Positions 890 to 5,486 of a stretch of 64,000 nt of DNA are shown here, piece by piece. Within the stretch, counting starts at the first letter, position 1, and every line of letters begins with the position of its first letter. The position numbers and the translations under genes were made by a program. The notes under the pieces are model-generated. The model searched no databases. It was not told where the DNA came from and saw only the letters and a list, made by a program, of their open reading frames with translations. This stretch comes from Escherichia coli (GTDB taxonomy: Bacteria > Pseudomonadota > Gammaproteobacteria > Enterobacterales > Enterobacteriaceae): the NCBI RefSeq assembly GCF_024223415.1, contig NZ_CP100500.1. The stretch is one strand, 5' to 3'.

Positions 890-3394
890 ATGTCACAAAC
901 TATCGACCTGACCCTGGACGGCCTGTCCTGCGGTCACTGCGTTAAACGCGTGAAAGAAAGTCTCGAACAGCGCCCGGATGTGGAACAAGCGGATGTGTCT
1001 ATCACTGAAGCGCACGTTACCGGGACTGCCAGTGCAGAACAGCTGATCGAAACCATCAAACAAGCGGGTTATGACGCATCTGTAAGCCACCCAAAGGCTA
1101 AACCGCTGGCGGAGTCATCAATCCCGTCGGAAGCACTGACAGCGGTTTCTGAGGCGCTTCCGGCAGCGACCGCCGATGACGATGACAGCCAGCAGTTGCT
1201 GCTGAGCGGCATGAGCTGCGCCAGCTGTGTCACCCGCGTACAAAATGCGTTGCAAAGCGTACCGGGCGTCACTCAGGCACGGGTAAACCTGGCGGAGCGT
1301 ACTGCGCTGGTGATGGGCAGTGCCTCCCCACAAGATTTAGTGCAGGCGGTGGAAAAAGCGGGCTACGGTGCGGAAGCGATTGAAGATGACGCGAAACGCC
1401 GCGAGCGCCAGCAAGAAACCGCCGTCGCTACGATGAAGCGCTTCCGCTGGCAGGCAATTGTTGCATTGGCTGTGGGTATCCCGGTAATGGTCTGGGGGAT
1501 GATCGGCGATAACATGATGGTCACCGCTGACAACCGCAGCCTGTGGTTGGTTATCGGCCTGATAACCCTGGCAGTGATGGTTTTCGCCGGCGGCCATTTT
1601 TACCGCAGTGCATGGAAAAGCCTGCTGAACGGTGCAGCGACGATGGATACGCTGGTGGCGCTGGGTACTGGCGTGGCGTGGCTCTATTCGATGAGCGTCA
1701 ACCTGTGGCCGCAATGGTTCCCGATGGAAGCGCGACATCTTTATTACGAAGCCAGCGCGATGATTATCGGTCTGATTAATCTCGGCCATATGCTGGAAGC
1801 GCGCGCACGTCAGCGTTCTTCAAAGGCGCTGGAGAAATTACTCGATTTAACTCCGCCGACGGCGCGCCTGGTTACTGACGAAGGTGAAAAAAGCGTGCCG
1901 CTGGCGGAAGTTCAGCCAGGCATGCTACTGCGCCTGACGACGGGCGACCGCGTGCCAGTAGATGGCGAGATTACCCAGGGCGAAGCATGGCTGGATGAAG
2001 CGATGCTGACGGGCGAACCTATTCCGCAGCAAAAAGGCGAAGGCGATAGCGTCCATGCCGGTACAGTGGTACAGGACGGTAGCGTGCTGTTTCGCGCCAG
2101 TGCGGTTGGTAGCCATACCACGCTATCAAGGATCATTCGTATGGTGCGCCAGGCCCAGAGCAGTAAGCCAGAAATCGGTCAGCTGGCGGATAAAATCTCA
2201 GCCGTATTTGTGCCGGTAGTAGTGGTTATTGCGCTTGTCAGTGCGGCAATCTGGTATTTCTTTGGTCCGGCACCGCAGATTGTCTATACCCTGGTGATTG
2301 CCACCACGGTGCTGATTATTGCCTGCCCGTGTGCGCTGGGGCTGGCGACGCCGATGTCGATTATTTCCGGCGTCGGGCGGGCGGCTGAGTTTGGCGTGCT
2401 GGTGCGGGACGCCGACGCGCTGCAACGCGCCAGTACACTCGATACCGTCGTGTTCGATAAAACCGGGACGCTGACCGAAGGGAAGCCGCAGGTTGTCGCA
2501 GTGAAAACATTTGCTGATTTTGACGAAGCGCAGGCGCTGCGTCTGGCGGCGGCACTGGAACAAGGTTCCAGCCATCCGCTGGCACGGGCGATCCTCGATA
2601 AAGCAAGCGATATGCAGCTGCCGCAGGTCAACGGTTTCCGCACATTGCGCGGGCTGGGCGTGAGCGGTGAAGCTGAAGGTCATGCGTTATTGCTGGGCAA
2701 TCAGGCGCTGTTAAATGACCAGCAAGTTGATACTAAAGCGATTGAAGCAGATATTTCAGCTCAGGCATCGCAAGGGGCAACGCCTGTGCTGCTGGCGGTT
2801 GACGGGAAAGCGGTAGCCCTGCTGGCTGTACGCGATCCGTTGCGTAGTGATAGCGTGGCGGCGCTGCAACGTCTGCATAAAGCGGGATATCGTCTGGTGA
2901 TGTTGACCGGGGATAACCCAACCACCGCCAATGCGATCGCCAAAGAAGCAGGGATTGATGAGGTGATCGCCGGGGTGCTGCCGGACGGTAAAGCCGAAGC
3001 GATTAAACGCCTGCAAAGTGAAGGACGTCAGGTGGCAATGGTGGGCGACGGCATTAACGACGCGCCAGCGCTGGCTCAGGCGGATGTCGGCATTGCGATG
3101 GGTGGCGGCAGTGATGTTGCTATTGAAACCGCGGCGATTACCCTGATGCGCCATAGCCTGATGGGTGTTGCGGATGCGCTCGCTATTTCCCGCGCAACGC
3201 TGCGCAACATGAAGCAGAACCTGCTCGGCGCGTTTATCTACAACAGTATCGGTATTCCGGTTGCCGCCGGTATTTTGTGGCCGTTTACTGGAACACTGCT
3301 TAACCCGGTGGTTGCCGGAGCGGCAATGGCGCTCTCGTCGATTACCGTAGTGAGTAACGCCAACCGGTTGCTGCGGTTTAAACCGAAGGAATAA
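890..3394 (+). CDS. copA: Cu(I)-exporting P-type ATPase CopA, 834 aa
   Basis: ORF track; two N-terminal GxxCxxC metal-binding domains, CPC, DKTGT and GDGIND motifs. Confidence 0.97.
1090..1096 (+). other. Programmed -1 ribosomal frameshift site in copA (slippery C CCA AAG) giving the short CopA(Z) chaperone
   Basis: cac cca aag gct at codons 67-70; the -1 frame reads aaa ggc taa and stops at once; reported for E. coli copA. Confidence 0.6.
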
Positions 3395-3399
3395 GTACG

Positions 3400-3524
<125 letters not shown>

Positions 3525-3592
3525 TGAACTGCACCCCAAATGTTGGACATAATCTGACATCTGAAGGTGCAGTTTATGAAACATTCATTTGA

Positions 3593-4096
3593 AGTAAAAC
3601 TGCCGCTGTAAATCATTACCTGGCCGGTCATGCAGGCATCATTTCTACGGCAAAACTCTTTCAACTTTCTCACACCAGCCTCTCACACTGGATTAATCTT
3701 TTTCTTCTTCACGGTCCTCAGGCACTGGATTGCAGACACAAGCGTAGCTATTCTCCTGAAGATAAACTTTGCGTGGTTCTTTATGCTCTCGGGCATTCTG
3801 AGTCTCTACCCCGGGTAGCTGCCCGGTTTAACATTCCCAGCCACAACATGGTTAAAAACTGGATAAAAGGCTACCGCAAATCTGGTAATGAGGCCTTTAT
3901 CAGGCGCAGGAAGGAGAAAAGCATGACCCGTTCTGATGATACCCATGAAAACGAGGCAAACATGACGCCGGAAGAGATGAAGAATGAGCTGCGTTATCTT
4001 CGCGCAGAAAATGCATATCTGAAAGCCATGCAGGAGCATCTCCTGGAAAAAAAGCGCCAGGAGCTGGAGAAAAAACGAAAGTCATCCAGAGCCTGA
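3593..4096 (+). CDS. IS3-family transposase OrfA (HTH); frame open from 3593 but no in-frame ATG, ORF track starts it at GTG 3773; likely 5' frameshifted
   Basis: Translation ..VNHYLAGHAGIISTAKLFQLSHTSLSHWINLF..RVAARFNIPSHNMVKNWIKGYRKSGNEAF.. plus leucine-zipper-like C-terminus; upstream ATG near 3576 is in another frame and stops after 11 codons. Confidence 0.6.
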   Translation, partial: SKTAAVNHYLAGHAGIISTAKLFQLSHTSLSHWINLFLLHGPQALDCRHKRSYSPEDKLCVVLYALGHSESLPRVAARFNIPSHNMVKNWIKGYRKSGNEAFIRRRKEKSMTRSDDTHENEANMTPEEMKNELRYLRAENAYLKAMQEHLLEKKRQELEKKRKSSRA

Positions 4097-4200
4097 AGTG
4101 CGGACACTGCCAGTCTGACCTGTTAAAGGCTGCAGGGCTGGCCAGAAGCACGCTGTACTACCAGCTGTCACTGCAGAAGGCTAAGGACAAGTATGCTGAT

Positions 4201-4955
<755 letters not shown>

Positions 4956-5122
4956 GTAAGCGTCGCATCAGGCAATGGTACTCGGATGCCGGATGCGGCG
5001 TGAACGCCTTATCCGGCCTACGGTTCAGGCACAGGTTTGTAGGCCTGATAAGACGCGTAAGCGTCGCATCAGGCAATGGTGCTCGGATGCCGGATGCGGC
5101 GTGAACGCCTTATCCGGCCTAC
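4956..5122. repeat. REP/BIME cluster, right part, immediately downstream of ybaQ
   Basis: Repeated gccggatgcggcgtgaacgccttatccggcctac and gcctgataagacgcgtaagcgtcgcatcaggc units. Confidence 0.8.
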
Positions 5123-5144
5123 GAGATGAAGCGATGTTTTGGCC

Positions 5145-5486
5145 TTACGCGACCTTTTTTGCACGCTCTTCACGGCGTGCCAAATATTCAGCCACTGTTT
5201 CAATCCGTCCCAATTCTTCCTGGGTACGCATGTTGTTTTCAACTTCCCAAAGATCAACTGCCGCCTGGAGGTTTAGCCAAAAATCGACTGTGGTATCAAA
5301 AACTTTCGCCAGACGGAATGCCATTTCAGTGGTGAGTTTACGATTATTATTGATCAGTGTACTGACGCTATTACGATGAACATGCAGCAACTCTGCTAAC
5401 TCATTGATTTTCAAAGAGAGCGGTTCCAGATATTCATAGAGAAGAATATCTCCGGGTGTCGTCGGTTTTCTTGTTGCCTGTTTCAT
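5145..5486 (-). CDS. ybaQ: HTH-type transcriptional regulator YbaQ, 113 aa
   Basis: ORF track, start set at MKQATRKPTT from recalled protein. Confidence 0.9.
   Translation of the reverse strand: MKQATRKPTTPGDILLYEYLEPLSLKINELAELLHVHRNSVSTLINNNRKLTTEMAFRLAKVFDTTVDFWLNLQAAVDLWEVENNMRTQEELGRIETVAEYLARREERAKKVA

Follow-up and report, generated by a model that had tools for sequence, protein, structure and literature searches.

The −1 frameshift of IS150 was reportedly mapped by Vogele and colleagues, in 1991, to the upstream A AAA AAG of that element, and the frameshift signal of IS911 uses a three-way junction. In IS911 and dnaX, as in IS1397, the insertion sequence considered here, an A AAA AAG heptamer comes with a Shine–Dalgarno (SD)-like GGAG (about 10–12 nt upstream) and with a downstream hairpin, a three-part layout that has been described for bacterial −1 signals (PMC4066793), even though the genes and structures of these two systems are unrelated to those of IS1397. 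In E. coli, where all heptamers and tetramers have been tested, A_AAA_AAG ranks among the three most efficient heptamers, whereas the maximum that tetramers attain is about 10-fold lower than that of the best heptamers, A_AA.A ranking last among the six functional ones, and tetramers deprived of a stimulator lie close to background (0.147% vs 0.112%) (PMC4066793). The same study gives permissive rules for stimulators, namely an SD-like sequence 6–17 nt upstream of the slippery site and a hairpin that starts 4–10 nt downstream of it, with a G–C closing pair, at least 3 more pairs and a stability of at least 7.6 kcal/mol; it also reports that A6G or A7 makes up 72% of the heptamers found in IS1 and IS3 elements (PMC4066793). 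As for IS1397, its specificity for REP sequences has been summarized (PMC1525189), and both the element and its programmed frameshift are already known, in RefSeq and in ISfinder-derived annotation.

Here, we examined a 64,000-nucleotide stretch of Escherichia coli DNA (hereafter, the window), in which the initial annotation had recognized an IS3-family element, had named IS1397 in this regard, and had singled out a run of six adenines as a candidate site for its −1 frameshift. The identity of the element is borne out: the sequence at 3525-4955 is IS1397, a REP-targeting insertion sequence of the IS3 family and of the IS150 group (table 1), and along its entire length it shares 99.9% identity with features that carry the label "IS3-like element IS1397 family transposase" (Megablast, complete E. 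coli genomes). By the same means, full-length IS1397 copies were found in 1707 complete E. coli genomes; the window itself holds 1. The family assignment is also apparent in the domain content of the fused product, where a DDE catalytic domain (Pfam rve, 2.9e-21; rve_2, 1.4e-20) is preceded by helix-turn-helix (HTH) domains (HTH_21, 2.3e-17; HTH_28, 1.2e-17; HTH_Tnp_1 likewise matches the fusion protein), and in the presence of two consecutive ORFs, the second of which lies in −1 and overlaps the first.

The boundaries of the element tell the same story. It has 5′-TG...CA-3′ ends, the left inverted repeat opening with TGAACTGCACC... and the right one closing with ...GGTTCAGTTCA, and the two repeats are imperfect, 3525-3549 and the reverse-complemented 4931-4955 having 21 of their 25 positions in common; the target duplication that flanks them falls within the 3–4 bp characteristic of the family. 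When the flanks are joined without IS1397, they rebuild a palindromic unit (PU), ...GCCTGATAAGACGCGTAAGCGTCGCATCAGGC, with the very sequence of the intact PU found at about 5040-5072, and matches to the Rfam family naRNA4, a REP-derived family, lie on both sides of the element, which together place the insertion in a REP/PU of a BIME. This neighborhood consists of copA (890-3394), the REP/BIME array and a ybaQ-like gene, and the copA–BIME–ybaQ arrangement exists free of the IS in other E. coli; the number of BIME units differs among strains, so that the comparison with an empty site is only partly clean. The window copy is like other IS1397 copies in its terminal repeats, its two-ORF layout, its heptamer, and its location in a PU loop, flanked by a 4-bp duplication, and differs from intact ones in a single missing T that truncates orfA, to which we return below.

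Table 1. Coordinates of the IS1397 copy, its ends, its reading frames, and the elements of its frameshift region (positions in the window).
Feature	Position	Strand	Remark
IS1397 copy	3525..4955	+	1431 bp, vs 1432 bp when intact
Left terminal inverted repeat, TGAACTGCACCCCAAATGTTGGACA	3525..3549	+	read from sequence; unique in the window
Right terminal inverted repeat, ending ...TTTGGGGTTCAGTTCA	4931..4955	+	read from sequence
Target-site duplication GTAA	3521..3524; second copy 4956-4959	.	loop of REP/PU palindrome
Truncated orfA start	3576..3611	+	ATG 3576, premature TAA 3609-3611 (MKHSFEVKLPL, then stop); translation and alignment to intact copies L001, L002, and L091
orfA frame remainder (HTH and leucine-zipper part)	3593..4096	+	stop TGA 4094-4096
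orfB frame, −1 vs orfA (HTH_21 and rve [DDE] catalytic part)	3988..4923	+	stop TAA 4921-4923
Relic of the relatives' heptamer position (..ENAYL/KK..)	4019..4027	+	ctg aaa gcc, non-slippery
SD-like GGAG (within AGGAG 4032-4036)	4033..4036	+	11 nt upstream of heptamer
Alternative helix, CATCTCCTGG / CCAGGAGCTG	4037..4066	+	encloses heptamer in its loop; inverted repeat I1, 90% complementary; −10.1 kcal/mol
Canonical slippery heptamer A AAA AAG, orfA phase	4048..4054	+	most likely programmed −1 site
Putative stimulatory hairpin, 38 nt	4058..4095	+	MFE −13.1 kcal/mol (0.345 kcal/mol/nt); begins 4 nt after heptamer
Flagged run G AAA AAA (A6 = 4070-4075)	4069..4075	+	occupies the hairpin's upper stem and apical loop; A_AAA tetramer only

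Translation of the frames agrees with the initial annotation in that orfB lies in −1 relative to orfA, but considerably enlarges their overlap, which had been thought to begin at about 4060 and to span about 12 codons: the last upstream stop of the orfB frame is a TGA at 3985-3987, the frame is open from 3988 onward, and the overlap amounts to 109 nt, or 36 orfA codons. The first start codon in the orfB frame is a GTG at 4201. An intact OrfA has 173 aa, and the OrfAB fusion would have 449 aa irrespective of which of the two candidate A-runs of the overlap serves as slip site. One of these is the run initially flagged, gagAAAAAAcga at 4067-4078, which is present inside the overlap as stated and reads gag AAA AAA cga.

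The initial annotation had taken this G AAA AAA to stand in place of a canonical A AAA AAG. A canonical heptamer does exist, however, at 4048-4054, that is, 21 bases upstream of the flagged run and in phase with orfA (codons AAA 4049-51 and AAG 4052-54). It is the sole in-phase heptamer of the X XXY YYZ type in the overlap, and it is invariant in the sampled intact IS1397 copies. Counting both strands, the window contains 26 instances of AAAAAAG and 34 of GAAAAAA, and the number of in-phase occurrences expected by chance in a 36-codon overlap is about 0.007–0.01, a figure that the lysine-rich coding of this region pushes up. The flagged G AAA AAA is also in phase with orfA, but its first three positions are not uniform, which leaves it outside the X XXY YYZ type. 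The −1 frameshift site of IS1397 is thus most likely A AAA AAG at 4048-4054 and not the flagged run, a preference that comes mainly from motif class, from annotation, and from conservation in the family.

With regard to annotation, intact IS1397 copies in RefSeq, including the copA-side copy of strain NCTC10444, carry a two-piece CDS marked "programmed frameshift"; the idea that OrfAB arises by a programmed −1 frameshift in the overlap accordingly stands, when the site to which the initial annotation attributed it is most likely wrong. Starting from an intact IS1397 copy, we assembled the fusion protein that each candidate site would give and sought these sequences in a collection of 15 billion proteins. 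The fusion made at the heptamer, ..LLEKK-APGAGEKTKV.., is present verbatim in NCBI under the name "IS3-like element IS1397 family transposase", and the commoner annotated junction, ..LLEKK-PPGAGEK.., is what results when the frames are joined one base 3′ of the heptamer (the protein of this form that has the present element's sequence is on 173 contigs). Essentially all of the 120+ NCBI OrfAB proteins that we inspected have the junction LLEKK/APGAGEK or LLEKK/PPGAGEK, both at the first A-run, whereas the fusions made at the second run, ..ELEKK-TKVIQ.. and ..ELEKK-PKVIQ.., are absent from the collection of 15 billion proteins. The reference element is therefore joined at a site other than the flagged one, at the level of annotation, since NCBI junctions are annotation and not experiment.

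From the perspective of the family, a scan of representative genomes yielded 80 loci at 40–57% identity, 64 of which have orfB in the −1 frame. An in-phase A AAA AAR is found in 61 of these 64 two-ORF relatives (A AAA AAG in 56, A AAA AAA in 5, none in the other 3), and GGAG stands exactly 11 nt upstream of the heptamer in 36 of 53 unique relatives, as it does in IS1397. In nearly all relatives, a stem GCCTTAGTTC...GAACTAAGGC follows 6–7 nt after the heptamer, with compensatory changes at 4 of its 9 pairs; this covarying IS150-type stem (GCCTTAGYTC...GARCTAAGGC) shows compensatory changes in 31 relatives and is also present in IS150. It is missing from the homologous position of IS1397, where the 5′ arm reads GCCATGCAGG and the heptamer is lost: in the relatives the heptamer comes directly after Tyr-Leu, when IS1397 has tat ctg aaa gcc at this place (4016-4027) and gca gaa instead of the upstream GGAG. 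A shift at this ancestral ..YL/K.. position was considered and rejected, ctg aaa gcc not being slippery. The cassette of IS1397, made of the GGAG, the 11-nt spacer, and the A AAA AAG, lies 27 nt downstream of the relatives' position, and the fusion linker, with its 19 residues, is as long as theirs. Between the two heptamer positions the −1 frame remains open and resembles the linker of one relative (L036), which is why the overlap reaches back as far as 3988. Because the heptamer of IS1397 is not where that of its relatives is, their conservation supports the type of motif and not its exact position.

The comparison with IS150, whose proteins are about 42% identical to those of IS1397, illustrates both sides of this relationship. 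The two elements share the same heptamer in the same phase and a downstream stem-loop whose loop holds the lysine-rich end of orfA together with a second G AAA AAR; the orfA stop is near the 3′ arm in both, and the orfB codons that this arm covers are homologous. In most relatives, IS150 included, however, the heptamer stands right after ..YL and the stem GCCTTAGCTC...GAGCTAAGGC starts 6 nt downstream, whereas in IS1397, which has ctg aaa gcc there, the GGAG, the heptamer, and the hairpin's 5′ arm are all displaced downstream by 27 nt, and the hairpin is a compact one of 38 nt that starts at +4.

The same relatives also clarify what the flagged run may be. All of them have, toward the end of orfA, another run of lysine codons, such as acG AAA AAG tga in IS150, agG AAA AAA cca in L036, and cgC AAA AAG cgc in L061, which in the orfB frame encodes a conserved Glu-Lys just before K(V/I)(V/I)xEL(R/K). 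The flagged run is homologous to this motif, read as KK in orfA and EK in orfB, and is present because both frames encode conserved lysines there; judging from these alignments, coding constraint accounts for it without slippage having to be invoked. One intact IS1397 copy has the run altered to AAAAAG. Two Pseudomonas relatives (L035 and L068) have only a G AAA AAR close to where orfA ends, and from these a site of this type may work in some members of the family. Furthermore, the two A-runs of IS1397 lie within an imperfect tandem repeat (QEHLLEKKR / QELEKKR), 4031-4057 resembling 4058-4078 with 18 of 21 nt identical. This gapped direct repeat became visible in a pairwise alignment and was not reported by the repeat search of the sequence; none of 2000 random 21-mers drawn from the IS scored as well. 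The two runs may be related by duplication, or may owe their resemblance to similar charged-coil codons, L036 aligning codon for codon without a gap.

As to the putative stimulators, the GGAG at 4033-4036 lies within the permitted distance of the heptamer, a feature that does not discriminate between the two runs given that the flagged one also has a GGAG 5 nt upstream, at the lower edge of the published range (PMC4066793). The predicted hairpin pairs C4058-G4095 to G4061-C4092 (4 bp) and C4064-G4089 to A4068-U4085 on either side of a 2x2 AG/AG internal loop, its upper stem comprising 5–7 bp (2 pairs may extend it beyond A4068-U4085) and its loop spanning 4071-4081. Only 1.7% of the 38-nt windows of the IS are as stable; the hairpin conforms to the published rules (PMC4066793) and stands in the top 3.6% of control positions, albeit with a start at +4 that is borderline, at the lower limit. 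Its apical loop accommodates the flagged A6, and its 3′ arm contains the orfA stop, an arrangement also seen in IS150. In a sample of five E. coli variants, one change, A4088G, keeps a U-G pair, when another, A4059T, seen in one intact copy, breaks a pair. Our homologue search returned only copies of at least 98% identity, the search of representatives showed no full-length relative at 43–98%, and the libraries searched thus held none at about 50–98%; it is for want of such intermediate relatives that the hairpin has no covariation to back it. An alternative helix would pair 4037-4046 with 4057-4066, thereby competing for the same 5′ arm, and is exclusive of the downstream hairpin. An Rfam scan of 3400-5150 (E ≤ 1) found naRNA4 (REP) only and no frameshift-element family, another point on which IS1397 differs from IS911 and dnaX.

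The initial annotation had suggested looking for a stem-loop or pseudoknot downstream of the flagged run. A 62-nt structure does follow it, at 4081-4142 (0.306 kcal/mol/nt, top 8.7%), and qualifies under the permissive rules (PMC4066793), but neither a pseudoknot nor a strong structure is found, the region folding no better than shuffled sequence (z = +0.88). We had considered the SD-like sequence and the hairpin as clean separators of the two runs and rejected them as such, both runs passing the permissive rules (PMC4066793); the modeled structures favor the first run over the flagged one only modestly.

Taken together, we hold it likely that IS1397 slips at 4048-4054, that the A6 run is derived from coding and weak at most as a slip site, and that the window copy is defective by deletion. 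In intact copies, ribosomes translating orfA would meet A AAA AAG at 4048-4054, where two lysyl-tRNAs, on AAA and AAG, would slip back one base onto AAA AAA and thereby enter the orfB frame. We infer that the ribosomes that slip would produce the 449-aa OrfAB transposase, with its HTH, leucine zipper, and DDE parts, when those that do not would stop at TGA 4094-4096 and release the 173-aa OrfA; the likely stimulators of this choice would be the GGAG located 11 nt upstream and the 38-nt hairpin located 4 nt downstream.

A more elaborate scenario, which we regard as rather unlikely, is that IS1397 rebuilt its cassette 27 nt downstream inside the tandem repeat, and that the two runs and the two exclusive helices (4037-4046/4057-4066 vs 4058-4068/4085-4095) could together govern how much OrfAB is made relative to OrfA and give rise to two transposase isoforms. 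Short of this, both runs could be used, A AAA AAG as the major site and G AAA AAA as the minor one, giving isoforms that differ in 7 residues (APGAGEK vs RQELEKK). The occurrence of two in-phase runs in one overlap, within a tandem repeat, and the fact that each of them satisfies the permissive stimulator rules lend this reading some plausibility, but the hairpin at 4058-4095 has already been opened by any ribosome that arrives at the second run, and tetramers without a stimulator barely exceed background (PMC4066793), which makes it unlikely in our eyes. In the preferred reading, the flagged A6 is at best a weak, secondary slip site of the tetramer type.

That the flagged G AAA AAA (4069-4075) should be the real or main site, the A-site tRNA-Lys re-pairing on AAA and the P site tolerating a G.U on GAA to give ..ELEKK-TKVIQ.., appears very unlikely. 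Like the IS3-type tetramer sites (A_AAG or A_AAA with a pseudoknot), the run contains a tetramer, A_AA.A, of a class that works weakly with a strong stimulator and is well represented among IS elements, being used by 87 of the 490 IS1/IS3 members surveyed (PMC4066793); it is in phase, inside the overlap, provided with a GGAG and the 62-nt structure at 4081-4142, would yield a product of the same length, and has a counterpart in L035 and L068, where only a motif of the flagged type is found. Unlike these tetramer sites, however, it is not followed by a pseudoknot or strong structure and has a canonical heptamer upstream, which ribosomes would meet first. It does not conform to the X XXY YYZ pattern, and its tetramer is the weakest of those that work (PMC4066793); no database protein is joined there, the KK/EK coding motif, which also exists in IS150, explains its presence, and one intact copy has the run altered.

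Efficient slippage by the E. coli RNA polymerase requires runs of about 9 or more A/T, longer than the A7 run at 4047-4053. The addition of one A in this run by the polymerase, which would give a single-frame OrfAB mRNA and a protein identical to the ribosomal −1 product, is hence most improbable, even though the run is indel-prone, as a DNA-level A8 variant in strain GN04979 indicates, and A7 runs are avoided in genes partly owing to transcriptional slippage (PMC4066793), for the phase of the motif, which the relatives conserve and which transcriptional slippage would not need, the conserved spacing of the GGAG, and the structure that follows are characteristic of frameshifting by ribosomes.

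Under the preferred reading, in which ribosomes slip at 4048-4054, the window copy is itself a special case that the initial annotation had passed over. Its sole difference from the intact copies L001 and L002 is a 1-nt gap, which the alignment to a third intact copy (L091) also shows, one T missing at about 3601 (CTTGCC to CTGCC), as a consequence of which orfA is not intact and ends after 11 codons. The same copA–ybaQ insertion is present in five complete genomes, each with one difference from the window over a 381-nt junction query, and the NCTC10444 copy, which has two differences from the window in 3.38 kb, is intact and annotated with a programmed frameshift. No other genome of the complete-genome collection carries the deletion, which suggests that it arose very recently or else reflects an error of sequencing. 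Should it be genuine, ribosomes that initiate at the usual ATG would never reach 4048 and no full-length OrfAB would be made, so that the frameshift is probably moot in this copy, which, as far as its reading frames indicate, is probably non-autonomous and inactive. With both of its ends intact, its mobilization in trans is nonetheless conceivable. It is also worth mentioning that orfA contains an internal GGAG (3913-3916) and an in-frame ATG (3923-3925), from which ribosomes could be fed into the slip site to make a product without the N-terminal HTH.

On this basis, the window copy calls either for a pseudogene label or for a check that the missing T is not an error of sequencing. Beyond such correct annotation the importance of these observations is slight, but the displaced signal of IS1397 would provide a small example of a recoding signal that moves within the overlap of two genes without any change in how long the fusion protein is.

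In the IS150-group relatives of IS1397, the slippery heptamer and its GGAG lie at the position encoding ..ENAYL|KK.., whereas IS1397 has lost both at that position; their counterparts, GGAG and A AAA AAG with an 11-nt spacer between them, lie 27 nt downstream of it (window 4016-4057). Between the relatives' heptamer position and its own, the -1 frame of IS1397 remains open, and this -1-frame stretch retains a resemblance to the linker of the IS150-group relatives. The two A-runs of IS1397, namely that of the heptamer and the G AAA AAA run of the initial annotation (4069-4075), are connected by an imperfect tandem repeat that may be a duplication, the units of which are identical at 18 of 21 nt and encode QEHLLEKKR and QELEKKR.

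Features of the IS1397 copy and its surroundings
Feature	Window position	Description
Internal GGAG (strong Shine-Dalgarno) and ATG	3913-3925	orfA frame
BIME/REP arrays	3404-3520 and 4956-5120	flank the IS on both sides
Imperfect tandem repeat (possible duplication)	4031-4078	CAGGAG(CATCTC)CTGGAAAAAAAGCGC / CAGGAGCTGGAGAAAAAACGA

Both A-runs have undergone indels in other copies of the element. In E. coli GN04979 (L090, 901-978), the heptamer run is A8 rather than A7, so that the two frames are fused at the DNA level; this copy is also cut by IS21. Each A-run is one A short in degraded IS1397 copies (proteins P0157 and P0186), and these losses fuse the frames too (..LLEKSARSWRKTKVIQ..). Most of the RefSeq IS1397 fusion proteins among the NCBI OrfAB proteins (P0016-P0135) carry a junctional Pro (KK-P-PGAG), since their CDS join is placed one base beyond the heptamer, so that c4055 is read twice. 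Ala (KK-A-PGAG) is the residue expected from simultaneous slippage on the A AAA AAG heptamer. The choice of Pro versus Ala is an annotation convention that alters one residue.

In the window copy itself, orfA ends after 11 codons because one T is absent compared with all intact IS1397 copies examined (CTTGCC to CTGCC, window 3597-3611). This T is present in E. coli NCTC10444, the locus of which is otherwise near-identical. Its absence from the window copy reflects either a sequencing error or an inactivating mutation of recent origin. The sole further difference from NCTC10444 over 3.38 kb is a single G/T in copA (window 2609). Downstream, the internal start in the orfA frame defines a 57-aa ORF (MTRSDD...SSRA) that gene callers name "putative transposase" (P0008 and P0013), and its product could be a leucine-zipper-only peptide or an OrfAB truncated at its N-terminus.

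As for the surroundings of the element, the number of BIME units at this locus varies among E. coli strains, and on both strands window 5042-5119 scores higher than the gathering cutoff of Rfam naRNA4 (RF02564).

Among the relatives, the overlap of three two-ORF elements of Pseudomonas spp. (L035, L068, and L071) lacks any X XXY YYZ heptamer. L035 and L068 carry nothing more than acG AAA AAR ccc shortly before the orfA stop, and L071 holds no slippery run of any kind; these three elements may use a tetramer-type site or be inactive. In five other loci (L003, L004, L005, L015 [Pseudomonas asuensis], and L039 [P. oryzihabitans]), the OrfA-like and OrfB-like parts share one continuous frame of ~1.4 kb, and frameshifting is not required.
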